A model generated the notes under the pieces. That model did no database searches. It saw nothing but the letters and a program-made list of their open reading frames with translations, and was not told the origin of the DNA. 64,000 bases of DNA from positions 43,118-107,117 of the forward strand of contig JABCZJ010000013.1 of the NCBI GenBank assembly GCA_013289715.1, read 5' to 3'. Positions 3,226 to 29,204 of the stretch are shown here, piece by piece. Each line of letters opens with the position of its first letter. The stretch's first letter is position 1. This DNA is from Acidobacteriota bacterium (GTDB lineage: Bacteria; Acidobacteriota; Terriglobia; Acidiferrales; UBA7541). The position numbers were made by a program, and so were the translations under genes.

Positions 3226-3270
3226 GCAAACGCGCCCGCCAGTCTAGCACGCGCGCCGGTACGACCCCGG

Positions 3271-3337: not shown

Positions 3338-3368
3338 GAATGTCCAACGCACTCAGAAAGGGAGCGTA

Positions 3369-7064: not shown

Positions 7065-7078
7065 CCTCGACCAGTGGA

Positions 7079-7597: not shown

Positions 7598-7689
7598 GGG
7601 GCTCGATGCGCGGTGTACCCCCTCCGTTTCCGAGCATTGTCGTAAGTATGGTTCAAACGTTGACTGACTCACGGCAGTCGGCACAGCCC

Positions 7690-8703
7690 ATGCGGAGGTT
7701 CAAGGTGCGAAAAATTGGGATCATCATCGCGAGCTTCGCGTTTTTGTGCACAGTCGCCTGCAATACACAGCCATCGAACGTAAGCCATCCAACCGTGAAT
7801 GCCTCCACACCAACGCAGGCGGCGAACCCTCCCGCAGTTCTCCCTCCGACCGCGACGGGTGGCTTTGACGGCGCCCAAGCGTTCGAACACGTTCGCAAAT
7901 TAGTCGAAATTGGACCCCGCCCACCAGGCTCCGATGGAATCCATCGCGCGCAGACTTACATCATCAGCCAGCTAAAGGGTATCGGCTGCCCCATCGAGGA
8001 GCATGATTTCCACGGCTCGACGCCGCTCGGCGATATCGCGATGAAAAACATTATCGCCAAGATTCCCGGCACAGGCAGCGGCATCGTCCTCTACACCACA
8101 CATTACGACACCGTACGCTTGCCGAATTTCGTCGGCGCCGACGACGGCGGCTCAGGCACCGGCACGATGCTAGAGCTAGCCCGAATTTTCTGCGCTCGCA
8201 AGACCAAGAGCACTCTCAACACCTGGATCGTGTTTTTCGACGGCGAAGAAGCGCAGGGCGAGTGGACCGACAGGAGCAGCGTTCAGTGGAGCGATGCGGA
8301 CAGCACTTTCGGAAGCCGCGAGATGGCCGCCAGCATGGCGCTCTCCGGAGATCTCAAGCGAGTGAAAGCGATGATCCTAGCGGACATGATTGGCCCATCC
8401 GATCTGAAGATCAAGCGAGACAAAAACTCCACGCCGTGGCTCACCGATCTGATTTGGGCGACCGCCAACCAACTCGGTTATGCGAATGTCTTTGTGAACG
8501 AAAGTACGATCGTCTCCGGTGACGACCATCTCTCATTCATCCGCCGCGGTGTTCCCGCGTGCGACCTCATCGACGACGAAGTCCAGTCCACTTACTGGCA
8601 CACGCCCCAGGACACGCTAGAGAAGGTTGACCCGCGCAGCCTCGCAATCGTCGGCCACGTTTTCATTGAGACACTGCCCGCTCTGGAAAAGAAATTCCGC
8701 TGA
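7690..8703 (+). CDS. M28-family metallopeptidase (aminopeptidase / glutaminyl-cyclase-like), lipoprotein-type signal
   Basis: 'HYDT…FVGADDGGSGTGTMLELAR…VFFDGEE…ILADMIG' are M28 zinc-ligand blocks. ATG 7690 gives 'MRRFKVRKIGIIIASFAFLCTVAC', a signal peptide with a lipobox-like Cys. The longer ORF from 7483 overlaps the upstream gene. Confidence 0.85.
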   Translation: MRRFKVRKIGIIIASFAFLCTVACNTQPSNVSHPTVNASTPTQAANPPAVLPPTATGGFDGAQAFEHVRKLVEIGPRPPGSDGIHRAQTYIISQLKGIGCPIEEHDFHGSTPLGDIAMKNIIAKIPGTGSGIVLYTTHYDTVRLPNFVGADDGGSGTGTMLELARIFCARKTKSTLNTWIVFFDGEEAQGEWTDRSSVQWSDADSTFGSREMAASMALSGDLKRVKAMILADMIGPSDLKIKRDKNSTPWLTDLIWATANQLGYANVFVNESTIVSGDDHLSFIRRGVPACDLIDDEVQSTYWHTPQDTLEKVDPRSLAIVGHVFIETLPALEKKFR

Positions 8704-8874
8704 AGCCCAAGACTCCGCAAAATCCGTAACTCCTGCCGACCAACCCGCCGTCTCCCGTCGTTCCCAGTTAACAGTTATCGACCGGCCAGCCGATACTACG
8801 GTCGGCGCATGTAGGGTGCATCGGCGCAACGCCGAAGGGCAACGCCCACCTACGATCCCATCGTGGAGGCCTAC

Positions 8875-9522
8875 ATGCCCAATTTAGAGAACCTCAAAAA
8901 GCAAGCCAAACTCATACTGCGCTGGCATCGTGAACGGCACTATCCCGTCGCCGCACAAATCCGCGGGCTTCTACCTCGTTTCTCGAATATGCCCGATGCG
9001 GAGATTCTTGCGGCGAACTTCAAGCTCAGCGACGCGCAAGTAATGGTCGCAAGACAGCACGGCTTCGATAGCTGGCAGGCCCTGAAAGCCGGACTCTCCG
9101 CCACGTCGCACAAAGCGAAATCGCCGCAGTCCAAAGCCACGATTACCTGCGCCGAGCCGCAACTGTTCGTCACCGATCTCAAAAAATCATGCGAATTCTT
9201 CCAGCAGAAGTTAGGGTTTTCGCTCGTATTCGTTTACGGCGAACCTCCCTACTGCGCGCAAGTGCGTCGCGACGCAGCGCGCCTCAACCTTAGGTGCGTC
9301 GAGGCTCCCGTAATCGAGTCCACGGGCCGCGCTCGTGAGGAACTGCTGTCGGTATCCATGACTGTCGCTACAGCGGACGAGATCAAGCTATTGTTTCTTG
9401 AATTTCACTCCGCTGGGGTTACCTTTCACCAGAGACTGAAAAAGCAGCCTTGGGGCGCCAGGAATTTCATCGTCAAAGATCCGGATAGCAATCTGCTGTT
9501 GTTCGCCGGCCCCGCAAACTAG
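8875..9522 (+). CDS. Glyoxalase/bleomycin-resistance (VOC) superfamily protein with N-terminal helical extension
   Basis: The C-terminal 'QLFVTDLKKSCEFFQQKLGF…GARNFIVKDPDSNLLLF' is VOC-fold-like. ATG 8875 is preceded by GGAGG at 8865-8869. Confidence 0.75.
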   Translation: MPNLENLKKQAKLILRWHRERHYPVAAQIRGLLPRFSNMPDAEILAANFKLSDAQVMVARQHGFDSWQALKAGLSATSHKAKSPQSKATITCAEPQLFVTDLKKSCEFFQQKLGFSLVFVYGEPPYCAQVRRDAARLNLRCVEAPVIESTGRAREELLSVSMTVATADEIKLLFLEFHSAGVTFHQRLKKQPWGARNFIVKDPDSNLLLFAGPAN

Positions 9523-9545
9523 CAGCTCCCAAGCATGCCCTCCGC

Positions 9546-9574
9546 TTGCTTGCCGCCAAATACCGTGATAATTT
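9546..9574 (+). promoter_or_regulatory. Candidate sigma70-type promoter of the lipid operon
   Basis: TTGCTT (9546-9551), a 17-nt spacer, then TAATTT (9569-9574), about 38 nt upstream of ATG 9612. This argues against the TTG 9546 start used in the ORF track. Confidence 0.3.
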
Positions 9575-9611
9575 CACTACTTCCGAATCACCAGCAACAA
9601 CTCACGCAACG

Positions 9612-12023
9612 ATGTCGCAGTCTATTTCAAACGCTCAAATCTCGAAATTAAGCGGGCCTGCGCAACACGCCTCCGCGCCCGCGCGCGAGCCTGTCTTCTG
9701 GCGCGTCGAAGGCAGCCTGCTCAACCTCACCGCCGTCCGCCCCGTCGGCTTCTTCGCCTGGAATTCGCAAAGCTTCCTGGAACGCTGGACGCGCCGCGGC
9801 GCCATGGCCATTCTCGCCCTCGCCCGCCCCTTCCTCTACATCACCGACCGCGTCTTCGCCACCCGCCTCCTCCACACCGTCCTCCGCGGAGTCAGCCGCG
9901 ACCGTCTCGACCTCCTGGGCGAAGAATTCTTCGAATATTTTCTGAAGCCGCGCCTGAAGCAGCAAGGCATCGCGAAACTGCAAGAAGCAATAGCCGCAGG
10001 CGGCGAAATCGTCCTGGTAAGCCAGGGTCTCGATCACATCATGCGTCCTCTGGCAAAACATCTAGGCATCGCGCGCATCATTTCCAATCGCCTCGATTTC
10101 CGCGAAGGCATGGCCACCGGACGCCTACTCGACCCAGTGATCCGCCCCCGCGGCGCCTTCGCCAGATTCACCGGCAGCCAACCAGACGGCCGCGTCCCCC
10201 GCGAAAAGTTAATCAGCATTCTAGGCTTCGAAAAAAATCCGCAAGTGCTCGACGAAGCCGTCAAACCCGCCGAGCGCGCCGCGCCCAAAGTCTACGTTCC
10301 AGTAGTCCACTACGAGTCGCGCAATGGCCGTCCGGTTTTTTCAACTCGCGCAGCCTTGCGCGGAAAAAACATCCTGCTCATCGGCGCCACAGGCTTCATC
10401 GGAAAAGTCTGGCTAGCGAATCTGCTCACCGATCTCCCGGAAATCGGCCGCATCTACCTGCTCGTTCGTCACAACAAAGCCAACACGTCCCTCCAACGCC
10501 TGCAACGCGTAATCGAAGAATCCCCAGTCTTCGAAAAGCTGGCCGAACGCCACGGCGACAAATTCGCTGAATTTCTCACCGAGCGCATCGAAGTCGTGGA
10601 CGGCGACGTCAGCAAACCCAACCTAGGCCTAAGCGCGCAAGACCAGCAAAAGCTCTGCCGCACTCTCGACGTAATCGTCAACAGCTCCGGCCTAACCGAT
10701 TTCAACCCCGACCTGCGCGACGCGCTAGCAGTAAACGTCCGCTCGACAGCCTACGTCCTCGATTTTCTGAAAGAATGCAATCACGCATCGCTCCTGCACC
10801 TCTCCACCTGCTACGTAGTAGGCCAACGCGATGGCCGCGTCCTGGAAGAATTGCCAAAAAACTACACTCCGCGCGGCATAGCCGACTACGACGCGGTAAA
10901 AGAATGGCAATCACTGGAAAATGTAATCAAAGAAACAGAAGCCCGCGCCGAATCGCCTGAAATAACCGAAGAACTCCGCCGCGCCGCGCAAAAGAAAGAA
11001 CACGCCGCCAAAGACCTGCAAGGCCCGGCGCTAGAAAATCAAGTCCGCAAAAACCGCGTCCGCTGGCTCCGCCAAACTCTTACCGACGCAGCCTCCCGCC
11101 GCGCCAACGAACTAGGCTGGCCCAACACCTACACCTTCACGAAAAGCATTTCCGAATCCCTGATCTGCAATTTCCTGGACGCCAACCCGCAAGCTGCCAT
11201 CGCGGTAGTTCGTCCAGCAATCGTCGAATCCTCCCTGGAAAAGCCGTTCCTGGGCTGGAACGAAGGCATCAACACCTCTGCCTCGCTCTCCTACTTGCTA
11301 GGAACTTTCTTCCGCCAACTCCCCACCAACGAATCGAAGTGCCTCGACCTAATCCCGGTTGATCTCGTCTGCCGCGGCATGACCCTGATCTCCGCCGCCC
11401 TAGTCACCCGCCGCCACCAGCGGGTCTACCAACTAGCCACCTCGGTAGCCAACGCGTGCAACATGCGCCGCTCGATCGAACTCACTGGCCTGGGCCACCG
11501 CAAATTTTATCGCGCGCACACCGACATCCAGCAACGCATGCGCCTGCGCTTCGACGCCATCCCCGTTTCCAAAACGCGCTACGAAGCCATCTCCGCCCCC
11601 GCGCTAAAAGCTGTCGTGCAAGCCATCAACCGCACCATGGAACCGTTCGCGTCCAAGCCTCCGCTAGCCCGCCAGGAACGCGAACTAGAAAAGGTCGTCA
11701 AGCTCATCTCCCTCTTCGAACCTTTCATCCTTCACAACGATCACGTCTTCGAGGCCGCCAACGTCGAACGCCTCAGCGCCGCCCTTCCCCCCGACGAACA
11801 AGCCGACTTCGGCTACGATTCCCGCGCCCTCGATTGGTGGGATTACTGGATCAACGTGCACATTCCCGCTCTGCGCAAGTGGTGTTATCCTCTCATCGAA
11901 GGACGCCAGCCGGAATCGCGTCCCCGGCGCTCAGTCCCGCTCGGAGCACGCGGCGACACGAATGCCACCACCGCCGCGGGAGCAGCGGGCGCAGCAAGCT
12001 CGGGTCCGGCAACGGTATCCTGA
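9612..12023 (+). CDS. Fusion protein: degenerate HAD-IB-like domain + fatty acyl-CoA/ACP reductase (NAD_binding_4 'male-sterility' type)
   Basis: The N-terminal 'FWRVEGSLLNL' sits where HAD motif I (F.D.DGTL) is expected. The central part has 'LLIGATGFIGKVWL' (a TGxxGxxG Rossmann motif) and 'NTYTFTKS' (YxxxK), followed by a long C-terminal domain as in FARs. Confidence 0.85.
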   Translation: MSQSISNAQISKLSGPAQHASAPAREPVFWRVEGSLLNLTAVRPVGFFAWNSQSFLERWTRRGAMAILALARPFLYITDRVFATRLLHTVLRGVSRDRLDLLGEEFFEYFLKPRLKQQGIAKLQEAIAAGGEIVLVSQGLDHIMRPLAKHLGIARIISNRLDFREGMATGRLLDPVIRPRGAFARFTGSQPDGRVPREKLISILGFEKNPQVLDEAVKPAERAAPKVYVPVVHYESRNGRPVFSTRAALRGKNILLIGATGFIGKVWLANLLTDLPEIGRIYLLVRHNKANTSLQRLQRVIEESPVFEKLAERHGDKFAEFLTERIEVVDGDVSKPNLGLSAQDQQKLCRTLDVIVNSSGLTDFNPDLRDALAVNVRSTAYVLDFLKECNHASLLHLSTCYVVGQRDGRVLEELPKNYTPRGIADYDAVKEWQSLENVIKETEARAESPEITEELRRAAQKKEHAAKDLQGPALENQVRKNRVRWLRQTLTDAASRRANELGWPNTYTFTKSISESLICNFLDANPQAAIAVVRPAIVESSLEKPFLGWNEGINTSASLSYLLGTFFRQLPTNESKCLDLIPVDLVCRGMTLISAALVTRRHQRVYQLATSVANACNMRRSIELTGLGHRKFYRAHTDIQQRMRLRFDAIPVSKTRYEAISAPALKAVVQAINRTMEPFASKPPLARQERELEKVVKLISLFEPFILHNDHVFEAANVERLSAALPPDEQADFGYDSRALDWWDYWINVHIPALRKWCYPLIEGRQPESRPRRSVPLGARGDTNATTAAGAAGAASSGPATVS

Positions 12024-12035
12024 CACTCAACCACT

Positions 12036-13205
12036 GTGGCCATCCTCCTGACTGGTTCCACCGGATATATCGGCGCGCACATCGCGTCGAATTTGCTTAC
12101 GGGCCACTCCGACCCGCTGAATCTCCTCGTCCGCGCGCGCGACGAACAGGAAGCGCAAGAACGCCTCTGGCGCGCTCTCCAACTGCATCTTGATTTCGCG
12201 CGTTTCGACCAACTGTTGCACGAACGCATCCGCATTTTTCGCGGCGACCTCACCGACACGCATTTCGGCCTGGCGAACGACGACTACGCGCAACTCGTCC
12301 GCTCCACAGACTCCCTAATCCACTGCGCCGCATCCCTGAATCGCAAATCCGAAAAAAGCTGCCTCAACGTGAATCTCCGCGGCACGCTCGAAGTCATCCA
12401 ATTAGCCCAGCGGTCCCGCGACCAGCACGGCCTCCGCCGCTTCAGCCACGTCAGCACGGTAGCCGTAGCCGGTCAGCGGTCGAACGAAGTAGTTCAGGAA
12501 GATAACGCCATCGACTGGAACCGTTCCGACTACGATCCCTACGCCCGCACTAAAAAATTCTGCGAACACATGGTCCGCCAGCTCCTCCCGGACGTTCAGC
12601 GCACGATTTTCCGTCCCAGCATCGTGCTAGGCGACAGCCGCCGCCCCGAAACCAATCAATTCGACATGGTCCGCGCCTTCGTCTTCCTCGCCAGCCTCCC
12701 GATGCTGCCCTTCCGCCCCGGCGATCGCATCGATATCGTCCCGGTAGATTTCGTAGCCGACGCCGTCGCCACTCTTCATCAAAAAGAAAATCCCGCTCAC
12801 GAGATTTACCATCTCTCGTCTGGCCGCGAATCCGAAACATTCATCGAACTCACCGAAGCGCTCTGCAAAGCGCAAGACAAGCGCGGCCCCGTTTTCGTCC
12901 CCAGCTTCGAAAAATCCACCGAGAAAATCGTAAATGCCCTCGCCGGCCGCGCCGGAAAAATCGGCGGCCTAGCCACTCTGCTGAAAGTCTTCCTCCCCTA
13001 TCTTCTGTGGAACACGGTTTTCGACAACTCGCGCGTCGTCGAAGAACTCGGCCGTCATCCCGCCCCGTTCTCGCAATACAGCCTCCCCCTGCTCCGCTTC
13101 AGCCGCGAAAATCATTTCGTCTTCAAATATCGCGAATGGCCCGCCGACGCTCCCGTCCACACCGCCTCCCGCGCCGCCAATGCCTCTCCGGATCCGCGCC
13201 AATGA
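12036..13205 (+). CDS. SDR-type NAD(P)-dependent reductase (thioester-reductase / NAD_binding_4-like)
   Basis: '[14 protein letters not shown]' is a Rossmann motif and 'YARTKKF' is a YxxxK motif. The GTG start lies 12 nt after the upstream stop. Confidence 0.8.
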
Positions 13206-14626
13206 CCGACCTGCTCCTGGAATCCTGGGTCAGCGGCCTCATCGAGCTCAACAAGTTCGAATGGATGCTCGGCGCCGGTCATGCCTGGCAACCTGGCACA
13301 AGCCTGAAGCTTCTCTTCGCCGGTTACAACGGCACGCGCAACACCGGCTCCGACGTCCGCGTAGAGGAAATGATCCGCCAAGTCCGCCGCATCCTCGGCG
13401 ACGAAAATATCGCCCTCAGCGTCATGTCGCAGAATTTCGATCTCACCCGCGGATATTTCGGCGACGCGCGTCAGGTGCATCTCCCCGACGTCTTCCCGCC
13501 GTTCTTGCACAAGGTAGTCCGCAAGAATGACGGAGTCGTAGCCTGCGAAGGCTCCATGTTCAAGAGCAAGTTCGCCAACGCCCTCACCACAATGATGATC
13601 GGCGCGCTGGGCATCGCCTCCGCGCAAAATAAATTAAGCATCGCTTACGGTGCTGAAGCAGGCGCCATGGATCCGCTGCTGCAAAGAATGACCCACCGCT
13701 ATTGCCGCGATTCGCTCATCATCACGCGCAATGTCGAATCGCAAGCCGTCCTCGGCAAACTCGGCGTCCCCACCGAACTAGGCACCGACACAGCCTGGAC
13801 CTTCGAGCCGCTAGCCCCCGAATTCGGCCGCAAAGCCCTCCGCGACGCAGGCTGGGACGGCACAACTCCCGTACTCGCGATATGCCCGATCAATCCGTTC
13901 TGGTGGCCGGTCACCGCGTCGCTCGCAAAGTGGCTAGCGCACTCCGTAGCAGGCGCATACGAAAAAAGCTACTACCGCACGATTTACTTTCATCGCTCCG
14001 GCTCCCCAGTGGACGCCGCCTACGAAAAATATCTTTCAGAGATGGCCACGGGCGTAGCCGGCTATCAAAAATCGCGCAAAGTTTTCCCAGTACTGGTCGC
14101 GATGGAAATGCTAGATCGCGACGCCTGCGAGCGCGTCGCGCAAAAACTAGGCGGCACGCCGGTCTTCGGCTCCGACCAATTCAACATGTACGAGCTAGTC
14201 AGCATCCTGCGCGCCTGCGATCGCCTGCTCTCGTCGCGCTATCACGCCATCGTCACCACCATGCCCGCCGGCATTCCCTCCGCCGGAGTCACCATGGACG
14301 AGCGCATCCGCAATCTCCTGCGCGAACGCGGTCACGAACATCTGCTCATGCGCGTCGACGAAGCCGGCCTCGCCGACAAAATCGTCGCAGCCCTCCGCGC
14401 CCTCGACTCCCAAGGCGAGGAAATTCCCGACGCCGTGGAGCGCACCGTAGCCCGCAATCTGCAGCTCATGGCGCGTATGGGCACTTATTTCGAAGAGCAA
14501 GTCGCGCGCCGCTATCCGCAATTCCCCGTGCGCAAAGGCGTCCTAGGCTGGGAAGATTATCTTCCCCCGCTAGGCCCGGGCCTCGTAAAACTGCTCGAAA
14601 AACACAGCGGAGTCCTGGCCGCATGA
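13202..14626 (+). CDS. Polysaccharide pyruvyl transferase family homologue
   Basis: '[20 protein letters not shown]', '[17 protein letters not shown]…GTDTAW' and '[20 protein letters not shown]' parallel the CsaB/WcaK-type blocks (GY.G..N.GD / RD..S / R.H..I). The ATG overlaps the upstream stop (ATGA, 13202-13205). Confidence 0.65.
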
Positions 14627-16287
14627 CATTCGTCGAAAATATCTTCGCCCGACTGAAGAAATCCGCCACCGAACCGGTGCTCCAGGAAATTCACGGCGAA
14701 AAAATCCACTCCGTCACCGGCAGCGAACTGCTCGCGATCACCCAGCAAGCTCGCAACTTCCTGCTAGCCCGCGGCCTCAAAAAAGGCGATCGCTGCGCCC
14801 TGCTCGCGCCCAACCGCATCCGCTGGGCCGCGCTGGACCTAGCCCTGATGGCCGAAGGAATCGTCGTTGTGCCGCTCTACGCGCGCCAAGCCCCCGCCGA
14901 GCTGGTCGTGATGATGCAAGACTCCACGCCCTCGCGCATCATCTGTCTCGATGCCGCGATCGCCGCCGAAATAAAAAAGTTGTGGCCGCAAGCCCCGCAG
15001 ATTTCACTACTCGAAGGCGTCTTCGCCGGCGAACCAAGCACCCCCACGCCACCCATGCACCACGAAGACGCGGATGTAATCTCCATCATCTATACCTCAG
15101 GCACCTCCGGCGAACCCAAAGGCGTAATCCTCACCGCCGGAAACGTCGATCACATCGTAGCCGCCACAAATTCGCGCCTCGATAAATTAATGGGCCCCCG
15201 CAGCCAGGCCGACCGAATCTTTCAGTACGCTCCCTTCTGTTTCGCCGCGTCCTGGATACTCCTCCTCACCGCGCTGTCGCGTCACAGCGTCCTGGCGCTT
15301 TCCACCGATCTCGCCAAACTTGCCGACGAACTAAAAATCGCCGCGCCCGAATATTTCCTGAATGTCCCCACGCTCCTCGAACGAGTCCGCGCCAGAATTC
15401 AAACCACCGTCCAAGAGCGCGGCGGCCTGGCCACAGCAATTTTCCGCCGCGCCCAACAAGCCTTCGTCCGCCGCCACAATAAACAATCCAAAATCGGCGA
15501 TTTTCTCTGGCTGGCGCTAGGCAATTCCCTCATGTTCCCAGCAATCCGCAAGAGTATCGGCCCCAACCTGAAGGCCCTGATCTGCGGCTCCGCCCCGCTA
15601 GGCGTCGAAACCCAACTTTTCTTCATGATGATCGGCATTCCAGTCCTGCAGGTGTACGGCCTCACCGAAACCACGGCTATCTGCACCGCCGACGATCCCG
15701 CCCACGTCGAGCCCGGCTTCGTAGGCCCCGCAATCCCCGGCGTAGAAATGAAGCGCGCCGACGACGGCGAAATCCTGGTCCGCGGGCCCAATATTTTCGC
15801 CGGATACTGGCAGCGCCCCGCCGAAACCGCCAAAGCCCTGCAAGATGGCTGGTTCCACACCGGCGATCAAGGCGAACCCAATGCAAGCGGCAACTGGCGC
15901 ATCACAGGCCGTATTAAGAACTTGATTATCCTGAATTCAGGCCACAACATCGCGCCCGAACCCATCGAAGAAAAGTTAACGCAACATTTGCCCGAAGCCC
16001 AGCAGGTGGTCCTGATCGGCAATCAACGCAGCTTCCTCGCCGCTCTCGTCACGCCCAACGCCAGCAACGGCGCAAACAAATTAACCGAGCAACAAATTCA
16101 ATCCGCCATCGAAACCGTAAACGCCGCGCAGCCTCACTACAAACAAGTTCGCGCGTTCCACGTCGTCCCCGAACCCTTCACCATCGAAAGTGGCCTGCTC
16201 ACCACCATGGGCAAACTAAAACGCGACGCCATCACCGCCCGCTTCGACGCTGAAATCGAAGCGCTCTACCAGAAGAAATCCTCATGA
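14623..16287 (+). CDS. AMP-dependent synthetase/ligase (long-chain acyl-CoA synthetase-like)
   Basis: It has the 'IIYTSGTSGEPKGV' AMP-binding signature, 'YGLTET' and 'GWFHTGD'. An ATGA overlap (14623-14626) joins it to the upstream gene. Confidence 0.9.
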   Translation: MTFVENIFARLKKSATEPVLQEIHGEKIHSVTGSELLAITQQARNFLLARGLKKGDRCALLAPNRIRWAALDLALMAEGIVVVPLYARQAPAELVVMMQDSTPSRIICLDAAIAAEIKKLWPQAPQISLLEGVFAGEPSTPTPPMHHEDADVISIIYTSGTSGEPKGVILTAGNVDHIVAATNSRLDKLMGPRSQADRIFQYAPFCFAASWILLLTALSRHSVLALSTDLAKLADELKIAAPEYFLNVPTLLERVRARIQTTVQERGGLATAIFRRAQQAFVRRHNKQSKIGDFLWLALGNSLMFPAIRKSIGPNLKALICGSAPLGVETQLFFMMIGIPVLQVYGLTETTAICTADDPAHVEPGFVGPAIPGVEMKRADDGEILVRGPNIFAGYWQRPAETAKALQDGWFHTGDQGEPNASGNWRITGRIKNLIILNSGHNIAPEPIEEKLTQHLPEAQQVVLIGNQRSFLAALVTPNASNGANKLTEQQIQSAIETVNAAQPHYKQVRAFHVVPEPFTIESGLLTTMGKLKRDAITARFDAEIEALYQKKSS

Positions 16288-17087
16288 ACATCTTTCAAGG
16301 CGAAACTCTCTCGTGGCATGTGCTCGACGGCACCATCGAGCTAACTCTCGACCGCGCCCCCTGCAACGAAATCGGTCGCGCCACGCTAGCCGACCTGGAA
16401 AAATTCATCGCCGCGCTCCCCGCGCTGCAACGCGAAACCCACGCGCTAATCATCAGCAGCACGCGCAAAGAAGGTTTCTGCGCCGGAGCCGATCTCCGCG
16501 AAACTTACCGCGTAGCCCAGCAGCTTCCGAAGAACGACCGCCTGGCCGCTCTCCGCGATTTCCTCGAACGCATCCATGATGTGATGAACACTCTCGACGA
16601 AGCTCCCCTCACCACCATCGCCGCAGTCCACGGCGTCACCTTCGGCGGCGGCTTCGAACTAGCGCTAACCTGCGACCTGATCATCGCCGATAAAATGACG
16701 CGCTTCTGCTTCCCTGAGCTTCGTCTCGGCCTGATTCCCGGCTTCGGCGGAATTCCCCGCCTCAAGCGCGACCTCGGAAACGCCATAGTCCGCGACCTGC
16801 TTCTAACCGGCCGCAGCATCAACGCCGCAAAAGCCCAATCGGTCGGCCTCGTCAGCCAAGTAGCAGCCGAAGGCGACGCCCTCCGCGTAGCGCGATCCAC
16901 CGCCGCGCAGCTAAAAAAATTCGATCGCGGCACCGCCATCGCCGCCAAAAAATTCATCAAGCCAATCCCCCACGACGAGCTCCGCCGCGAAATCGAGATC
17001 TTTTGCGACCTTTTCATGCGCCCCGCGGTAGACGCCGGCCTGCGCAAGTTTGTCGAAAGCACCGACGCGCTCCCCTATCTCCCCTAG
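16284..17087 (+). CDS. Enoyl-CoA hydratase/isomerase (crotonase) family protein
   Basis: 'FCAGADL' and '[15 protein letters not shown]' are crotonase oxyanion-hole blocks. An ATGA overlap lies at 16284-16287. Confidence 0.9.
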
Positions 17088-17140
17088 CCCCGCGCACCAA
17101 CCATGCCGACCCAAGCAAAATTGTGGCAAGATAGAAAGAC

Positions 17141-17383
17141 ATGAACACCCTGGACAAAACCACCGACGAAGTCCTGCGCCTAGCCGCCGAACATTTCAAA
17201 GTGCAGCGCGAGCAGCTCGCTCCCGACGACGATTTGTTCAAAAAACTCGGTATCAACAGCCTCCAGGCCCTGGACCTCCTGACCCGCATCGAACAGCATT
17301 TCCAGATCGAGCTCCCCGACTACGAACTCCAGGGCGTAACCGACTTCCGCACCCTCGCCCAACGGATTCAATCACGCCTGTAA
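17141..17383 (+). CDS. Stand-alone acyl carrier protein
   Basis: 80 aa and acidic. '[16 protein letters not shown]' places a Ser at the phosphopantetheine-attachment position (the DSL-type motif, here NSL). Confidence 0.8.
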
Positions 17384-19092
17384 TGCTGGATCTTCGCCAA
17401 TTCAACTCGCTAGGGGAAGCGCTGCGCGCCGCACTAGATCGCTGGCCAAACGAAATCTGCCTCATCGAAGCCGATCGCGATCGTGAAAACGCGCGCCTCA
17501 CCTATCGCCAATTCAAAGAACAAGCGTTGCCCCTGGCGAGCGTGCTCCAAAATGCCGGACTGCGGGACAGCACACGCGCCGCCATAATTATGACCAATCA
17601 GTCCAAGTGGTTGATCTCCGCCTACGCGATTTTCTTCTGCGGCGGCGTCCTGGTCCCGCTCGATTACAAACTAACGGCCGCTGAACAACTGCAGCTTCTC
17701 GCCCATTCACGCGCGGAATTTCTGGTGATCGAATACCACCTGTGGCGCGCAATGACGCAATCCGAGCAATTCAAAGATCTAGCCGTGCACACGGTGCTGG
17801 TGACGGAAGCTCCGACGGGCGCTGATCTAGCAGGCGCGAATCGCTGGGAAGATTTTCGCGCCGCAGCCGAACCAACATTCATCCCGCGCAAACGCAACGA
17901 CCCCGCGTGCATCGTCTATTCCTCCGGCACCGGCGGACGCCCCAAAGGCTGCGTCCTCACTCACGAAAATTATCTCGAGCAATGCGTCGCCCTTACCTCG
18001 CTCTATCCCTTCTGGCCCGGCGTGCGCTACCTCAGCATTCTCCCCACGAATCACGCAATCGATTTCATGGTCGGCTTCATCGGCCCCTTCACCTGCGGCG
18101 CCACGGTCGTTCATCTGCGCACCCTGCGCCCCGAATTCATTCGCGAAGCCTTTACAAAATACAAAATCACCTACATGGCCCTGGTGCCCATGGTTCTGAA
18201 AAATCTAGAACGCGGCCTGCGCCAAAGATTCACGGATCTGCCAAAGGGCAAACGGAAAATCCTCAACGCGCTAATCGCAACCAACCGCGCCTTGACCCGC
18301 CGTCGCCCCCACCTGAAAATCAGCCGCGCGTTACTGCCGCAAGTCCATCGAGCTTTCGGCGGCGAACTTCGCGCCCTGTTCGTAGGCGGCGCTTTCACCG
18401 AACCCGAAACTCTGCAATTTTTCTACGATCTGGGAATCCCAGTAGGCAATGGCTACGGCTGCACCGAAGCCGGCACAGTGATCACCGTCAACGACCTGAA
18501 GCCTTTCCGGGGCGACACCGTGGGTAAGCCCCTTCCCGGCATGGAAGTGAAAATTGCAAATCCAGGCGCCGAGGGAATCGGCGAAGTAACGGTTCGCAGC
18601 CGCACACTCATGTCGCATTACCTCGACGATCCCGAAATGACCGCCGAAACCATCGTGGACAGCTGGCTCATGACCGGCGACCTCGGCCGCCTCGATCCCT
18701 CCGGCCATCTGCAACTCTTCGGCCGCAAGAAAAACATGATCGTCACCGAAGAAGGCAAAAATATTTATCCCGAAGACGTCGAAACCTATTTCGCCGGCCT
18801 CTCCGTAAAGGAATTCTGCGTCTTCGCCGCAAACTATCTGTGGCCAGCCCGCACCATGGTCGGCGAACAGCTCGTCCTCGTGCTGCATCCGGAAACCGGG
18901 CAAGAAATTACCGAAGCGCTCGTGAAAGACGTCGCCGAACGCAATCGCCGCCTCCTGAATTACAAACGCATCAGCGGCTATCTCCCCTGGGACCGCGATT
19001 TCCCGCTAACCGCCTCCCTGAAAAGCAAGCGCGCCGAACTAGCCGAACAAATCCGCCAATATCGCGATCGCAACGCCGTGGTGCCGCTATGA
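17383..19092 (+). CDS. AMP-dependent synthetase/ligase (candidate acyl-ACP/fatty-acyl-AMP ligase partner of the ACP)
   Basis: It has '[14 protein letters not shown]', 'YGCTEAG' and 'WLMTGDLG'. The ATG overlaps the ACP stop (TAATG, 17381-17385). Confidence 0.9.
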
Positions 19093-19129
19093 TTCACAGG
19101 ACGCTCCTTCAGCCGGAGCGCTCGCGCCG

Positions 19130-20032
19130 GTGAGCACGCAATTTCTAGCCATCGTGAATCCCGCAGCCGGCGGCGGCCGTTCCGGCCAACTCGCCGCGGG
19201 CATGTTAGAAAAAGTCCGCAATATCGGAATTGCTCTGGCCGTAAAGCACACAACTCGATCCGGCGAAGCCACCGAAATCGCGCGCCAAGCCTACCGCCAA
19301 GGGATCCGCAATTTCCTGGCGGTCGGCGGAGACGGCACCTCCTTCGAAATCCTCAACGGTCTGTTCCCGGATGCCGAAACGCGCGGCCGCCCCACGCTAG
19401 GCTTCCTCCCGCTCGGCACCGGCAATTCATTTCTGAAAGATTTCACAGAGCGCGGTGTCGAACACACCATCGCAGCCCTAAAAAAAAATACCCGCCGACC
19501 CTGCGACGTCATCAGGCTCCGCCACGCTCAAGGCGAACTATATTTCCTCAATCTCCTCACACTCGGCTTCCCCGCCGACGTCGCCGAAACCAGCAACCGC
19601 CGCTTCAAGCGCTGGGGCGAACTCGGTTACATCCTCGGCGTTTTCACGCGCCTCCTACGGCTCGAGCATCTAGCATTTCCGCATCACCTCGCCGAAACAA
19701 AAGAATGGAATCGCAATCCCGTCCTCTTCTTAACTTTCAACAACAGCAAATTCACCGGCGGCCACATGATGATCGCCCCCGACGCCGATCCCACCGACGG
19801 CCTGATCGAATACGTCCGCTGGGGCCCCATCGGCCGCCTCGGCCTCATCTGGACCCTGCCGCGCCTCTTCACCGGCACACACATTCGTCATCGCAAAGCC
19901 TCCCGCGCCGCTACGAAGCGCATCGATTTCGAACTCGCCGGCCCGGTAAACGTAATGGTGGACGGCGAAAGCATGCGCCTGGAATGCCAGCTCCTGGAAA
20001 TTCTTCCGGCCGCGCTGGACGTGATCGTATGA
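19130..20032 (+). CDS. Diacylglycerol-kinase-catalytic-domain lipid kinase (YegS/BmrU-like)
   Basis: 'FLAIVNPAAGGG' and 'LAVGGDGTSFEILNG' are DAGK_cat signatures. The start is GTG. Confidence 0.85.
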   Translation: MSTQFLAIVNPAAGGGRSGQLAAGMLEKVRNIGIALAVKHTTRSGEATEIARQAYRQGIRNFLAVGGDGTSFEILNGLFPDAETRGRPTLGFLPLGTGNSFLKDFTERGVEHTIAALKKNTRRPCDVIRLRHAQGELYFLNLLTLGFPADVAETSNRRFKRWGELGYILGVFTRLLRLEHLAFPHHLAETKEWNRNPVLFLTFNNSKFTGGHMMIAPDADPTDGLIEYVRWGPIGRLGLIWTLPRLFTGTHIRHRKASRAATKRIDFELAGPVNVMVDGESMRLECQLLEILPAALDVIV

Positions 20033-20778
20033 AGCAAGCCTATCGCAACGCCCGCTCGGCCCTCCTGTGGGCTGCAAGCGGATTACATTTTGCGGTGGTG
20101 GGAACAATTCTCATTCTGCTCGGCGCTGTCGTCGACCCACGCAAGAACGACTGGCCGCAGCGCGCATTCTTCCGCAATATTCTCCGTCTCGCAGGCGCGC
20201 GCTTCGAAGTGCGTCGCGCCCCGGGATTCGACGCTACTCGCACCAGCATTTTCATCTGCAATCACGTAAATCTCTTCGACCCGTTCGTGATCTACTCTGC
20301 CGTCCCGCAATTCCTGCGCGGCTTCGAACTGGAATCGCACTTCAAAGTGCCGGTCTACGGCTGGATGATGGGCCGCTTCGGAAATATTCCCGTGCCCGAC
20401 GCGCCCAGCCGCGAAGGCCTGGAAATCATGACGCAACGCGCCAAAGCCGCGCTCGATTCTGGCGTCAGCCTGGTCGCTTTCGCCGAAGGCTCGCGCACCC
20501 GCGACGGCCACGTCCGACTCTTCAAGAAAGGTATCTTCAGCATCGCGCAAAGATTCGGAATTCCCATCGTGCCCGTAAGCATGGTCGGCTCCTACCAATT
20601 CTTCCAAACCGGCCACTGGATGCTGCATCCAGAAAAAATCACGGTCTATCTGCACGATACGATTGACACGACGAAGATCGCGCGCGCCGACGTAGACGCG
20701 CTGCGCCAGCGCGTGCAGGAAATTGTTTCGAGCCCAGTGGAAAAATCGCTGCAGGAAAACCCTGTGAAGAAATTCTAA
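20029..20778 (+). CDS. 1-acyl-sn-glycerol-3-phosphate acyltransferase family (PlsC-like)
   Basis: It has 'FICNHVNLFDP' (the HX4D motif), 'FAEGSRTRDG' and 'IPIVPV', plus an N-terminal TM segment. An ATGA overlap lies at 20029-20032. Confidence 0.85.
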   Translation: MKQAYRNARSALLWAASGLHFAVVGTILILLGAVVDPRKNDWPQRAFFRNILRLAGARFEVRRAPGFDATRTSIFICNHVNLFDPFVIYSAVPQFLRGFELESHFKVPVYGWMMGRFGNIPVPDAPSREGLEIMTQRAKAALDSGVSLVAFAEGSRTRDGHVRLFKKGIFSIAQRFGIPIVPVSMVGSYQFFQTGHWMLHPEKITVYLHDTIDTTKIARADVDALRQRVQEIVSSPVEKSLQENPVKKF

Positions 20779-20808
20779 AAACTTTCGCGCCAAACCGCGC
20801 GCCCCGCG

Positions 20809-21456
20809 CTAAGAAATCTGCGTCGCGTCAGCCGCTGGCAATGATCGCCCCGCCCGCAGCTCCTGCCACGTATAAACCACGCGATGAATCACCGTAATCG
20901 TCGAGACCACCGCGATCACCCACAGCACTTGCGCCATGCGATTAAACGCGCCGCCCATGATCAGCAGCACCAACCGCTCGGGCCGCTCCATAAATCCCAC
21001 TTTGCACAAAGGAATAATCGATTCCGCCCGCGCCCGCGCATAACTCACCATGAACGAGCTCGCCATCGCCACGGCGGCGAGCGCCATATAAAACGGCCGC
21101 CCGATCAACGTGTAATGCACCACCAATCCCATATACAAAGCCAAATCCGAATAACGGTCCAGCGTCGAATCCAGAAACGCGCCAAACGCCGTCACCCGTC
21201 CCACGCGCCGCGCCACTTGCCCATCGGCCATATCCAAAAATCCCGCGAGAAACAAGACCGCCGCGGCCTGCCGGAACAGCCCCATCGCAAAAAGCGCCGC
21301 GGCCCAAGAATTCACCGCCAGCCCCAAAAACGTAAACATATTCGGCGTAATGCCCGTCGCCGCGAGGCCACTTACCACATGGCGCAGCAGCCATCCGCCG
21401 CCTTCGCCAATCCAATACGTGGGCGGCTTCTTCCGTTCGATTGCGCTGTTGTCCAT
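20809..21456 (-). CDS. CDP-alcohol phosphatidyltransferase family protein
   Basis: 'DMADGQVARRVGRVTAFGAFLDSTLDRYSD' matches D-G-x2-A-R-x8-G-x3-D-x3-D. The protein is polytopic. ATG at 21456; the longer ORF to 21534 overlaps scoB. Confidence 0.85.
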   Translation of the reverse strand: MDNSAIERKKPPTYWIGEGGGWLLRHVVSGLAATGITPNMFTFLGLAVNSWAAALFAMGLFRQAAAVLFLAGFLDMADGQVARRVGRVTAFGAFLDSTLDRYSDLALYMGLVVHYTLIGRPFYMALAAVAMASSFMVSYARARAESIIPLCKVGFMERPERLVLLIMGGAFNRMAQVLWVIAVVSTITVIHRVVYTWQELRAGRSLPAADATQIS

Positions 21457-21502: not shown

Positions 21503-22180
21503 TCACTTCGTCCGCAGCGCCATCTCCGGAACATTTTCGCTGCAACGCAATTTCGGCTCCGTCTGCTCCTGCACTTCCTCCGGCGTAAATCCCGGAGCCA
21601 CCTCGCGCAACACCAATCCGTCAGTCGTCACATCAATCACCGCCAAATCCGTGATAATGGTATTCACGCACTCAATCGCCGTCAGCGGATAACTGCAAGC
21701 GGTCACGATTTTGCGCTGGCCATCCTTCGAATTATGCTCCATCGTGACGATCAATTTCTCCGCACCCACGGAAATGTCCATCGCCCCGCCAATCCCGCCT
21801 GCGCCCTTCGCACCTGGCACCCGCCAATTCGCCAGATCGCCGCGTTCCGAAACCTGCAATCCGCCCAGAATACATATGTCCAGATGCCCGCCCCGCGTCA
21901 TTACATGCGCATCCACCTGCGAAAAATAAGCCGCGCCAGGCACCAGCGTCACTGGCACCTTCATCGCATCCACCAGATCGTAATCTTCCTCGCCCGCTTT
22001 CGCGCGCGGACCCATACCCAGAATTCCATTCTCGCTGTGAAAATAAACCACCACGTCTTTCGGCACGTACGCCGCAATCAGATTCGGTATCCCCCAACCC
22101 AAATTCACGTAAGCCCCGTCCGGCAGTTCCAGCGCCGCGCGTTCCGCGATCTGCTCCCGCGTCAGCCGCGCCTTAGGCAT
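21503..22180 (-). CDS. scoB: 3-oxoacid CoA-transferase subunit B
   Basis: 'REQIAERAALELPDGAYVNLGWGIP…' and 'SENG' (the catalytic Glu region) are typical of the family I CoA-transferase beta subunit. It overlaps the upstream subunit A gene. Confidence 0.9.
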   Translation of the reverse strand: MPKARLTREQIAERAALELPDGAYVNLGWGIPNLIAAYVPKDVVVYFHSENGILGMGPRAKAGEEDYDLVDAMKVPVTLVPGAAYFSQVDAHVMTRGGHLDICILGGLQVSERGDLANWRVPGAKGAGGIGGAMDISVGAEKLIVTMEHNSKDGQRKIVTACSYPLTAIECVNTIITDLAVIDVTTDGLVLREVAPGFTPEEVQEQTEPKLRCSENVPEMALRTK

Positions 22181-22853
22181 TGTGAATTCCCTTGGCCACC
22201 ACGATGCGGTCCACGTAAATCGAAGGCGTCACAATCGTTTCCGGATCCAGCGTCCCCGTTTCCACCACTTCATCCACTTCCACAATCGTGATCTTCGCCG
22301 CCGTCGCCATAATCGGATTAAAATTTCGCGCGGCCTTGCGATACACCAGATTCCCCATGCGATCCGCGCGATAAGCCTTGATGAACGCGTAGTCCGCGCC
22401 CAGCGCCTGCTCCAAAATATACCGCTTGCCGCGAATCACGCGCTCTTCCTTGCCTTTCGCGACGTCCGTCCCCACTCCGACAGGCGAATAAAACGCCGGA
22501 ATGCCAGCCCCAAACGCGCGCATCCGCTCGCACAGGATTCCCTGTGGCACCAGCTCCAGCTCCACTTCGCCCGCATCGAATTGCTGCTGAAAGTAAGTCG
22601 CGCCCGGTCCCGGAAACGCCGCCACCACATGCCGGATCTGCCGGTTCTTGAAAAGAATCCCCAGCTCGCCGTCGCCCGTTCCACAATTATTGCTGATTAC
22701 GCGCAAATTGCGCGCGCCCCGCCGCGCCAGCCCCTGAATCAAATTATTGGGAAACCCCGCCCCGCCGAATCCGCCGAACATGACGATAGCGCCATCGGGG
22801 ACATCTGCGACCGCAAGGTCCACCGAAGCAAGTACTCTGTCTTTTCGATTCAT
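22173..22853 (-). CDS. scoA: 3-oxoacid CoA-transferase subunit A
   Basis: 'DGAIVMFGGFGGAGFPNNLI…' is a typical alpha-subunit N-terminus. The two subunit genes are arranged as an overlapping pair. Confidence 0.9.
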   Translation of the reverse strand: MNRKDRVLASVDLAVADVPDGAIVMFGGFGGAGFPNNLIQGLARRGARNLRVISNNCGTGDGELGILFKNRQIRHVVAAFPGPGATYFQQQFDAGEVELELVPQGILCERMRAFGAGIPAFYSPVGVGTDVAKGKEERVIRGKRYILEQALGADYAFIKAYRADRMGNLVYRKAARNFNPIMATAAKITIVEVDEVVETGTLDPETIVTPSIYVDRIVVAKGIHNA

Positions 22854-29198: not shown

Positions 29199-29204
29199 GG
29201 AGCG

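Follow-up and report, generated by a model that had tools for sequence, protein, structure and literature searches.

A conserved operon of Acidobacteriota predicted to make an unusual, probably ether-type membrane lipid from reduced fatty acids

Nine co-directional genes and one convergent gene, located in a 64,000-nucleotide stretch (hereafter the window) of the genome of an uncultured soil bacterium of the Acidobacteriota, form a conserved locus that we are inclined, on balance, to regard as a dedicated operon, passed whole from one lineage to another, whose role is to build a non-standard membrane lipid out of fatty acids that have been reduced to alcohols. The product is most likely an unusual membrane lipid of the ether-type (alkyl) or otherwise reduced glycerophospholipid class, probably ether-linked, and made by a route not yet described.

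Inspection of open reading frames, Pfam matches and motifs recovered all ten genes at 9546–21456, with the domains and catalytic motifs that the original prediction had assigned to them (Table 1). Five junctions overlap, by ATGA (g2/g3, g3/g4, g4/g5 and g8/g9) or TAATG (g6/g7), which fits the translational coupling proposed there. The first available start of g1 is TTG 9546 and the likelier one ATG 9612, with conservation among orthologues beginning at about residue 28 of the ATG-9612 product, while g10 has an alternative upstream start at ATG 21534. Where JGI has called genes on further contigs from this population, the g2 product is 389 aa long and that of g3 474 aa; g4 encodes 554 aa in three of the four cases listed and 508 aa in the remaining one, whose locus end truncates the gene. 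The 30-nt gap between g9 and g10, whose stop codons face each other, contains a hairpin.

Table 1 Features of the operon, in window positions.
Feature	Position	Strand	Basis or remark
g1: pseudo-HAD + fatty acyl-CoA reductase (FAR) fusion	9546..12023	+	Pfam
g2: stand-alone thioester-reductase-type SDR	12036..13205	+	NAD_binding_4
g3: polysaccharide-pyruvyl-transferase superfamily, GT-B fold, predicted PEP-dependent	13202..14626	+	PF04230, CsaB model
g4: long-chain acyl-CoA synthetase, FadD11/ACSL type	14623..16287	+	AMP-binding + AMP-binding_C_3
g5: crotonase, enoyl-CoA hydratase type	16284..17087	+	ECH_1
g6: dedicated acyl carrier protein (ACP)	17141..17383	+	PP-binding
g7: second adenylate-forming ligase	17383..19092	+	AMP-binding
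g8: YegS/Rv2252/BmrU-family lipid (diacylglycerol-type) kinase	19130..20032	+	DAGK_cat + YegS_C
g9: PlsC-type lysolipid acyltransferase	20029..20778	+	PF01553
G+C-rich hairpin	20786..20801	.	terminator-like for minus strand; consensus match only
g10: CDP-alcohol phosphatidyltransferase, phosphatidylinositol-phosphate (PIP)-synthase type	20809..21456	-	PF01066

The closest relatives were found in Ca. Acidiferrales and other Acidobacteriota MAGs, in agreement with the acidobacterial origin, and all loci found derive from MAGs or metagenome contigs. In 80 species-level Acidobacteriota genomes the order g1–g9 with convergent g10 recurs as far as the fetched flank extends, and is maintained down to 50–65% identity; g3 is at least 65% identical between acidobacterial classes. 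Neighbours outside the operon (glyoxalase, CoA-transferases) are not conserved in the Acidobacteriota loci. A relative of the operon’s central gene is present in at least 563 species genomes, and a core comprising the HAD, FAR, thioester reductase, pyruvyl-transferase-like, acyl-CoA ligase, crotonase, ACP, second ligase, lipid kinase and acyltransferase genes occurs in the same order in MAGs of the Myxococcota (L081, L083), Planctomycetota (L082) and Pseudomonadota (L089), with g2–g8 of L081–L083 being 41–59% identical to the window proteins. Conserved synteny outside this genome, whose absence would have counted against the original prediction, is thereby found both within the Acidobacteriota and across at least four phyla.

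The product of g1 combines HAD (PF12710; 46.9 bits, about 9783–10154), NAD_binding_4 (186.5 bits, about 10380–11378) and Sterile (38.5 bits, about 11679–11885) domains, and its nearest PDB entry is the fatty acyl-CoA reductase 7eoz (8e-45). The two functions fused in g1, HAD and FAR, are encoded separately in the Myxococcota. In the HAD domain the nucleophile motif DxD is replaced by RxE (F-W-R-V-E-G), as it is in Myxococcota homologues, so the earlier label ‘pseudo-HAD’ is correct. The nearest structure to g2 (NAD_binding_4, 162.7 bits; TIGR01746, 145 bits against a cut-off of 213) is the terminal reductase of MxaA (4u7w, 5.5e-23), a protein that converts an ACP-bound thioester into the alcohol. 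TGxxGxxG and YxxxK are present and conserved in orthologue alignments of both enzymes, motif conservation having been gauged across 52–81 orthologues depending on the gene. An identity as sugar-nucleotide epimerases was rejected for both, as NAD_binding_4 scored 186 and 163 bits versus 29 and 60 bits for Epimerase; with the nearest structures, these scores uphold the predicted FAR and thioester-reductase types.

The ligase g4 matches AMP-binding (190.7 bits) and AMP-binding_C_3, and its TSGTxGxPKG motif reads YTSGTSGEPKG in the translation. The crotonase g5 (ECH_1, 131.6 bits) keeps both catalytic glutamates (GGGFE, FPE), with GGGFELAL and a further 11-residue stretch conserved in 68 orthologues, and no acyl-CoA dehydrogenase or 3-hydroxyacyl-CoA dehydrogenase was present in the cluster, either in the window or in the other-phylum loci examined. 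The ACP serine of g6 (PP-binding, 50.5 bits) lies in LGINSL, conserved among orthologues. Its stop codon is overlapped by the start of g7 (AMP-binding, 238.6 bits), which is probably an acyl-ACP ligase, and in the Blastocatellia a KASIII gene stands directly upstream of this ACP–ligase pair. Together, g7 (A), g6 (T) and g2 (R) make up a stand-alone A-T-R set resembling carboxylic-acid-reductase and NRPS-like A-T-R systems but, unlike the latter, consist of separate proteins embedded in a phospholipid-assembly operon.

Proteins of the g3 superfamily include the ketal-pyruvyl transferases CsaB, WcaK and Pvg1p, with which g3 shares PF04230 (31.1 bits; cut-off 25.3) and CsaB model (TIGR03609, 60.8 bits) matches, PEP-binding positions and a two-Rossmann GT-B-like fold. 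The AF2 model (pLDDT 93.4) has GT-B enzymes as its best Foldseek matches, a generic placement only at a TM of about 0.5. Alignment with E. coli WcaK (hhalign probability 94%) pairs R176, D196, R346-x-H348 and R368 of g3 with the R, D, RLH and K of WcaK, and these residues are invariant in 57 multi-phylum sequences. The homologous Arg, Arg-x-His and Lys/Arg positions of CsaB have been shown by mutagenesis to bind PEP (PMC10435577). On these sequence and model comparisons, g3 is a GT-B-fold enzyme retaining the PEP-binding R...RxH...K/R signature and is predicted to be PEP-dependent. However, it differs from CsaB, WcaK and Pvg1p in its PF04230 score of only 31 bits, in lacking a polysaccharide or glycan context, with no glycosyltransferase or sugar-nucleotide genes nearby in any locus examined, and in its linkage to FAR and acyl-CoA synthetase, with which it is fused elsewhere. 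For example, the metagenomic protein P0130 combines a g3-like domain with the C-terminal, Sterile-bearing part of a FAR, while P0174 (967 aa) joins a g3-like to a g4-like (ACSL) domain. The absence of glycan context, together with these linkages and fusions, suggests that the acceptor is probably a lipid, namely a lipid alcohol or diol. More distant g3 relatives were found in NRPS or oxygenase contexts.

The remaining genes resemble phospholipid-assembly enzymes. The kinase g8 (DAGK_cat, 82.8 bits; YegS_C, 76.9 bits; TIGR00147, 115.9 bits versus a cut-off of 118.65) belongs to the same YegS/Rv2252/BmrU family as Rv2252-type diacylglycerol kinase, with GGDGT conserved in its orthologues. Similarly, g9 (PF01553, 67.8 bits) has HVNLFD (HX4D) and EGSRT conserved among orthologues, and the Aas acyl-ACP-phospholipid acyltransferase ranks second among its NCBIfam matches. 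The g10 product (PF01066, 60.8 bits; NF040950, 155 bits, cut-off 180; NF045883, 126 bits, cut-off 170) comes closest to the PIP synthases (PgsA1) of mycobacteria and Renibacterium, with mycobacterial 6h53 the nearest PDB entry (2.3e-23) and DMADGQVARx8Gx3Dx3D present and conserved in orthologues. Unlike PgsA1 and the Rv2252-type kinase, g10 and g8 fall below the curated equivalog cut-offs, as g2 does for its own best NCBIfam family, and the lipid substrate of g8 and g10 probably differs from ordinary diacylglycerol. No inositol-phosphate synthase gene was found in the 64-kb window. The convergent position of g10 is kept in 51 Acidobacteriota loci and a search of the regions flanking L081–L083, from two other phyla, yielded no g10 homologue, while one Blastocatellia variant (L086) lacks both kinase and acyltransferase. 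Since g10, among the loci searched for it, is confined to the Acidobacteriota and L086 dispenses with g8 and g9, the assembly end appears less fixed than the core.

From these gene contents, motifs, fusions and conservation patterns we infer substrates, an order of steps and a product. In a fatty-chain module, g7 would load a fatty acid onto the dedicated ACP g6, with KASIII added in the Blastocatellia, and the MxaA-like g2 would reduce the ACP thioester to an aldehyde or alcohol. A CoA-linked module of g3, g4, g5 and g1 may then modify the chain and reduce a second carboxyl group. Finally, g8 and g9 would turn the lipid alcohol into a phosphatidic-acid-like molecule, to which the PIP-synthase-like g10 of Acidobacteriota may add an inositol-phosphate-type head group.

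The operon would work like the myxobacterial Elb system for ether lipids in using adenylation, ACP, reductase and acyltransferase functions. As outlined in PMC9131029, ElbD combines FAR, ACS, ACP and AGPAT domains (Lorenzen et al. 2014), in line with the domain set named in the original prediction, and the M. xanthus elb operon also encodes the HAD-like ElbB and the NAD-dependent SDRs ElbA and ElbE. On that account, elbA–E and the operon have in common a HAD-like protein, FAR-type reductase, adenylating ligase, ACP, AGPAT-type acyltransferase and extra SDR. The description of the operon as a split and extended Elb-like system therefore stands for the domain repertoire, including the ElbB-like HAD and ElbE-like SDR, but not for gene order, as ACP before ligase and acyltransferase after kinase are not collinear with the FAR-A-ACP-AT of ElbD as described there. 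The operon also differs in carrying these functions on separate genes, apart from the new HAD–FAR fusion, in four more conserved genes (pyruvyl-transferase-like, second ligase, crotonase and lipid kinase) and, in Acidobacteriota, in the PIP-synthase-like gene. In sponge Acidobacteriota and Poribacteria, some elb-like clusters have elbD split between reductase and A domains, and acyltransferase, DAG kinase and CDP-alcohol phosphatidyltransferase genes border some of them (bioRxiv 10.64898/2026.06.23.733905; PMC9426513). These clusters partly share the phylum of the operon but have a multidomain elbD homologue as their defining gene; the main text and supplement of the bioRxiv study make no mention of a pyruvyl-transferase, and a crotonase was looked for in its supplement only. 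By its described domain content and order, the operon is a cluster type distinct from elb. As Myxococcota have the fully split form too, it represents a separate type and not the outcome of elbD being broken up in Acidobacteriota. The Sterile-domain FAR and acyltransferase also resemble the eukaryotic and MXAN_1676-type ether-lipid route (FAR1, GNPAT, AGPS), but no AGPS (FAD-linked alkyl-DHAP synthase) homologue was found in the cluster in any locus examined, and of the established ether-forming enzymes (AGPS, PlsA/Ger) the cluster contains none.

Under a strict split-ElbD reading, which we consider unlikely, orthologues of elbB, elbD and elbE would make 1-O-alkyl ether lipids by the M. xanthus mechanism, with g3, g4, g5 and g8 as accessories. 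The HAD, FAR, A, ACP, AT and SDR repertoire matches, and elb-like clusters are reported in which elbD is split or genes for DAG kinase and CDP-alcohol transferase lie close by, but the gene order is not collinear with ElbD, g3, g4 and g5 are conserved across phyla as strictly as the ‘Elb-like’ genes, and Myxococcota themselves carry the split cluster. A glycerol-free lipid seems highly improbable: g4 and g5 would yield a 3-hydroxyacyl-CoA and FAR a 1,3-alkanediol, of which g3 would make a pyruvate ketal or which kinase and acyltransferase would use as a backbone. This would keep g3 within the ketal chemistry known for its family (PMC10435577), the alkanediol having the 1,3-diol geometry of a hexose 4,6-diol, and would suit the two hydratase glutamates of g5 and a FAR following the ACSL–crotonase pair. 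However, enoyl-CoA would have to come from outside the cluster, and the acyltransferase, or the second ligase, ACP and reductase set, would be left without a substrate. We know of no such diol or ketal lipid from these phyla. The least probable of the readings is an NRPS-like secondary-metabolite or storage-lipid cluster, producing a fatty aldehyde or alcohol, wax ester or signal molecule that has no structural function in membranes. Natural-product clusters typically contain A-T-R systems, MxaA provides the structure nearest to g2, and distant g3 relatives have NRPS or oxygenase neighbours, but the very high conservation of g3 between classes, the breadth of species genomes and the linked lipid kinase, PlsC-type and PIP-synthase-like genes tell against this reading.

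Within the favoured reading of a reduced membrane lipid, a more specific and tentative form, itself doubtful, has g3 forming the ether bond. Here g3 would move enolpyruvate from PEP to the fatty alcohol of the fatty-chain module, giving a 2-alkoxyacrylate; g4 would make its CoA thioester, g5 would hydrate this 2-substituted acryloyl-CoA to 2-O-alkylglyceroyl-CoA, much as crotonase hydrates methacrylyl-CoA, and g1 would reduce it to 2-O-alkylglycerol for acylation and phosphorylation by g9 and g8. Such a scheme employs every conserved gene, accounts for two ligases, two reductases and a hydratase with neither dehydrogenase in the cluster, and agrees with the retained PEP signature, the adjacency and overlapping junctions of g3–g4–g5 and the FAR–g3 and g3–ACSL fusions, while KASIII beside the ACP module points to that module carrying the fatty chain. 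On the other hand, it is a chemical argument only, g3 is placed just generically among GT-B enzymes, and a 2-O-alkyl product is predicted, whereas the alkylglycerols reported from Acidobacteria and Myxococcus are mainly 1-O-alkyl. In addition, those PS_pyruv_trans enzymes that have been characterised act on sugar diols to form ketals, not on mono-alcohols to form enol ethers (PMC10435577). If this form of the pathway were true, the glycerol backbone of the lipid would derive from PEP and not from G3P or DHAP.

The cluster comprises nine ORFs in the same direction and one convergent ORF (g1-g10), and Pfam assigned to them all of the domains that the original prediction had named (see table). 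Gene junctions carry ATGA overlaps at four positions and TAATG at one. The stop codons of the convergent genes g9 and g10 are 30 nt apart, with a G+C-rich hairpin in between. When genes were called independently by JGI on further contigs from this population, the products of g2 and g3 and, on three of four contigs, of g4 had identical lengths. The catalytic motifs checked were intact and are kept in alignments of 52-81 orthologues, the TSGT motif of the ligase g4 being seen in the window translation. The fusion protein g1 has the TGxxGxxG Rossmann motif, catalytic YxxxK and C-terminal Sterile domain of an alcohol-forming fatty-acyl reductase (FAR), with FAR 7eoz as its nearest structure (8e-45); that of the reductase g2 is MxaA. 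Motif I of the HAD part of g1 reads R-x-E, not DxD, the nucleophilic Asp being absent in the window protein and in two Myxococcota homologues, and this domain, although HAD-like by Pfam, is predicted not to be an active phosphatase. The crotonase g5 carries the oxyanion-hole motifs and both catalytic glutamates (GGGxE ... PE) of an enoyl-CoA hydratase, a motif definition based on rat ECH (E144/E164), and 68 orthologues preserve a 16-residue stretch and FPELRLG. The lipid kinase g8 scored 115.9 bits on TIGR00147, for which the cut-off is 118.65, and its GGDGT motif is conserved. The phosphatidyltransferase g10 has an intact CDP-alcohol motif and scored under cut-off against both NF045883 (phosphatidylinositol-phosphate synthase; 126 bits, cut-off 170) and NF040950 (archaetidylinositol-phosphate synthase; 155 bits, cut-off 180), and its nearest structures are PIP synthases.

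Features of the window and of related loci; positions are those of the window unless the row names another locus (L-number)
Feature	Position	Content	Basis or context
Probable lipid cluster	9546-21456	g1-g10	ORF calling
g1		HAD PF12710 (46.9 bits), NAD_binding_4 (186.5), Sterile (38.5)	Pfam
g2		NAD_binding_4 (162.7 bits); also Epimerase	Pfam; thioester-reductase-like by NCBIfam
g3		PS_pyruv_trans PF04230 (31.1 bits; gathering score 25.3)	Pfam
g4		AMP-binding, AMP-binding_C_3	Pfam; FadD11-like by NCBIfam
g5		ECH_1 (131.6 bits)	Pfam
g6		PP-binding	Pfam
g7		AMP-binding (238.6 bits)	Pfam
g8		DAGK_cat, YegS_C	Pfam; YegS/Rv2252/BmrU family by NCBIfam
g9		Acyltransferase	Pfam; AGPAT domain by NCBIfam, Aas acyltransferase second-best match
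g10		CDP-OH_P_transf	Pfam; closest in NCBIfam, under cut-offs: archaetidylinositol-phosphate and phosphatidylinositol-phosphate synthases
CoA-transferase A/B pair	21503-22853, minus		immediately upstream of g10, same strand
Repeat and outer-membrane proteins	3369-7064, 51865-53697, 47890-51570	two FG-GAP/ASPIC-UnbV repeat proteins, one with N-terminal TPR; one CarboxypepD_reg and large outer-membrane beta-barrel protein	
One-direction gene block	26021-33761	aldo/keto reductase, IlvD/Edd-family dehydratase, mandelate-racemase/enolase-superfamily protein, 3-hydroxyisobutyrate-dehydrogenase-like protein	
Low-GC stretch	34000-44800	GC 0.53-0.55 versus about 0.59	ends at tRNA-Leu(taa)
AbiEi/AbiEii toxin-antitoxin pair	34274-35883		in low-GC stretch
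Response-regulator-PAS-GGDEF-EAL protein	36404-38521		in low-GC stretch
Partial phage-type integrase	43660-44463		in low-GC stretch
tRNA-Leu(taa)	44702-44787, minus		
Negative GC skew, plus strand	1-24000 and 46000-56000	about -0.2, positive AT skew	
GC skew about 0	26-46 kb and 56-64 kb		
L086, Blastocatellia	5656-18257	variant of the cluster	
L066, Blastocatellia	15807-19919	variant of the cluster	
L081, Myxococcota MAG		HAD, FAR, thioester reductase, g3-like, ACSL, ECH, ACP, ligase, DAGK	
L083, JGI metagenome contig		order of L081 plus acyltransferase	protein cluster named Nannocystaceae
L082, Planctomycetota MAG		g3-like through acyltransferase	
L089, Pseudomonadota MAG		thioester reductase through acyltransferase, then TetR gene	
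L088, distant g3 member	1330-16223	KASIII, ACP, AMP-ligase, Orn/DAP decarboxylase, fatty-acid hydroxylase, P450, PLD, autoinducer synthase	

Several features of the window lie apart from this cluster. The GC skew, very strongly negative, continues unbroken over the minus-strand genes at 20.8-22.9 kb and so would seem to reflect replication or mutation more than coding. The low-GC stretch, which also contains a Crp-family regulator and a DUF72 fragment, is probably an integrated genomic island. The one-direction block looks like a sugar-acid catabolic cluster, and two of its ORFs (29360-30703 and 31876-32877) had no Pfam match. The outer-membrane beta-barrel protein with a CarboxypepD_reg domain is of a type common in Acidobacteriota.

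The pyruvyl-transferase homologue g3 shares 80-93% identity with thousands of proteins from soil metagenomes, those with names being Ca. Acidiferrales or Acidobacteriota. When each GTDB species was represented by one genome, g3 relatives turned up in at least 563 genomes. The best 80 of these, with g3 65-93% identical, are Acidobacteriota MAGs (Acidiferrales, Terriglobales, Terriglobia and Blastocatellia), two of them labelled Verrucomicrobiia. When all window proteins were searched by tblastn, the order g1-g9 with convergent g10 recurred in these best 80 loci wherever the flank was long enough, with identities of the cluster proteins falling to 50-65%. A lack of synteny outside this genome, which the original prediction had named as evidence against a dedicated lipid pathway, is thus not what was found: gene order is shared, as far as the flanks reach, by these 80 loci and by loci in other phyla. 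Every acidobacterial locus covering g1 has HAD and FAR fused. Some loci have insertions between g5 and g6 (outer-membrane barrel, S9 peptidase, parts of ABC transporters), all unrelated except a KASIII gene in Blastocatellia. There (L086, L066) the FabH-like KASIII gene is directly upstream of the ACP gene and a DUF4199 gene is inserted between the HAD-FAR and reductase genes, and L086 has genes for a methyltransferase and a SnoaL-like protein where the kinase and acyltransferase would be expected. Both MAGs labelled Verrucomicrobiia (L021 and L043; g3 77-79% identical) are probably represented by mis-binned acidobacterial contigs, a recent transfer being less likely; L021 has the full cluster, and L043 is cut off just after g3.

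The upstream glyoxalase gene was found by tblastn in none of the 80 loci, and all-against-all clustering of their ORFs, in which conserved shadow ORFs from the other reading frames prevailed, yielded no further family as widespread as g1-g10. The CoA-transferase pair was rejected as a member of the system, being kept only in the closest relatives (L001-L019). Its end overlaps the longest g10 ORF, and g10 may be expressed by read-through from this pair in this genome.

Beyond the Acidobacteriota, the g3 family proved modest in size and distinct, and comprised 934 clusters at E<=1e-3, mostly of about 470-490 aa, among 1.84 billion 50%-identity representatives searched, and a query with a distant member retrieved named homologues from Myxococcota (Nannocystaceae), Planctomycetes, Pseudomonadota, Tistlia and Collimonas. 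The g2-g8 proteins of L081-L083 share 41-59% identity with those of the window, and in the Myxococcota loci HAD and FAR are two genes. No g10 turned up in the L081-L083 flanks, nor do the gene calls of L089 include a CDP-alcohol transferase. All cluster carriers found are uncultured; no cultured carrier was encountered, the g3 homologue of Collimonas humicola having another gene context, and tblastn gave no match to g3 on plasmids. More distant g3 relatives occur in acyl, NRPS or oxygenase contexts, never in glycan clusters. For example, among members at 30-45% identity, which include that of L088, the one in Tistlia (L084) adjoins an esterase and an NRPS and that in Collimonas humicola (L090) adjoins AurF-like and Asp/Arg-hydroxylase genes, and these small-molecule contexts, with that of L088, suggest a broader non-glycan role for this PF04230 branch.

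Although g3 passes the PF04230 gathering score, it is not a CsaB by sequence, since it scores 60.8 bits against the CsaB equivalog TIGR03609 (cut-off 213). Profile alignment with E. coli WcaK (hhalign; probability 94%, E 1.3e-7) placed g3 residues R176, D196, R346-Y-H348 and R368 on R, D, R-L-H and K of WcaK, and R176, D196, R346, H348 and R368 are invariant in a 57-sequence multi-phylum alignment. In CsaB, R148, R306, H308 and K328 bind PEP according to docking and mutagenesis (PMC10435577), and, with the correspondence of g3 to CsaB running through WcaK, g3 is very probably PEP-dependent. An AlphaFold model built on the 57-sequence alignment (pLDDT 93.4, pTM 0.92) matched GT-B structures in the PDB by Foldseek at TM about 0.5 (UDP-GlcNAc 2-epimerases, GT1 glycosyltransferases and OGT); there was no sequence match to g3 in the PDB, and a profile search gave chance IpaD matches only. 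Two metagenomic fusion proteins link g3 to its neighbours: in P0130 (640 aa, probably N-terminally truncated) a g3-like domain follows the C-terminal Sterile part of a FAR, and in P0174 (967 aa) such a domain precedes an ACSL resembling g4.

Taken as a pathway, the cluster holds two independent sets for carboxyl activation and reduction, an A-T-R arrangement of g7, g6 and g2 and a CoA ligase-FAR pair of g4 and g1. The ACP set would handle the fatty chain, as supported by the KASIII gene beside ACP in Blastocatellia, and the overlapping junctions and the fusions suggest that g3, g4, g5 and g1 act together. The resulting lipid alcohol would then be turned into a phospholipid by g8, g9 and g10. 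We lean, by a modest degree, towards an alcohol-level and probably ether-type glycerophospholipid as the product. A more specific scheme, which we consider unlikely, is an oxygen-independent route to glycerol ether lipids in which phosphoenolpyruvate supplies both the ether bond and the C3 backbone. Here g3 would use PEP to enolpyruvylate a fatty alcohol, making the ether bond of a 2-alkoxyacrylate; g4 would convert this to its CoA thioester; g5 would hydrate it to 2-O-alkylglyceroyl-CoA, by analogy with the hydration of methacrylyl-CoA by crotonase; and g1 would reduce it to 2-O-alkylglycerol, which would be acylated, phosphorylated and given a head group. This route uses every conserved gene and fits a cluster in which g5 is hydratase-competent by its motifs and dehydrogenases are absent, whereas it predicts 2-O-alkyl products and 1-O-alkyl glycerols are those commonly reported. 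As the most economical detailed scheme it is put forward as a long shot, and nothing relevant in the literature searched connects ether lipids with PEP or with a pyruvyl transferase.

Other readings of the cluster fared differently. Polysaccharide pyruvylation was rejected because glycan genes are absent: in the window, L081-L083, L086 and L089, the neighbours of g3 include no glycosyltransferase, flippase or sugar-nucleotide gene. With sphingolipid synthesis the cluster has an ACP, a ligase, an SDR and a lipid kinase in common, but it lacks a serine-palmitoyltransferase-type gene, and that reading was rejected. The closest comparison is with the elb operon of Myxococcus xanthus, which encodes ElbA (SDR), ElbB (HAD-like), ElbC (unknown function), ElbD (ABF88003.1 / Q1DC43; FAR-ACS-ACP-AGPAT) and ElbE (SDR) and of which the chemical steps are unknown (PMC9131029). 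Homologues of elb have been reported from subdivision-4 Acidobacteria (PMC13159169, PMC10087280), and among the elb-like cluster families of sponge Acidobacteriota and Poribacteria some have a split elbD and some adjoin acyltransferase, DAG-kinase and CDP-alcohol-transferase genes (bioRxiv 10.64898/2026.06.23.733905; PMC9426513); the preprint and its supplement (bioRxiv 10.64898/2026.06.23.733905) do not mention a pyruvyl transferase. Like Elb, the window cluster encodes a HAD-like domain (PF12710 in g1) and an NAD_binding_4/Epimerase protein (g2), which match ElbB and ElbE/ElbA at family level. In contrast to the single multidomain ElbD, the corresponding functions lie on g1, g7, g6 and g9, and the two are not collinear, with ACP before the ligase and the acyltransferase after the kinase; the window cluster also has four further conserved genes, and its split form occurs in Myxococcota as well. 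The description as a split, extended Elb-like system holds for the shared functional repertoire and fails for the multidomain ElbD and for collinearity. The cluster would work like Elb as a variant whose membership of that system is putative, and the original interpretation is partly supported.

To our knowledge, the formation of alkyl ether bonds by aerobic bacteria is unresolved, and no phylum is more closely linked than Acidobacteriota with aerobic ether and brGDGT lipids that lack an explanation. That elb or agps genes contribute to the ether lipids of Acidobacteria, or to the brGDGTs used as palaeoclimate proxies, is undemonstrated (PMC11868695). As the present cluster shows, BLAST matches to ElbD in metagenome surveys may come from another system. 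The cluster described here is abundant in soil Acidobacteriota, as seen from the spread of g3 relatives over species genomes and metagenome proteins, and is kept as a unit across phyla. Its PEP-type transferase was unexpected, and together with the crotonase it suggests a concrete ether-forming chemistry, an in vitro testable candidate for the missing step. If the phosphoenolpyruvate scheme is true, soil Acidobacteriota would use it widely, and Myxococcota, Planctomycetota and Pseudomonadota would have it too; even without an ether product, the cluster represents a widespread, uncharacterised lipid pathway.
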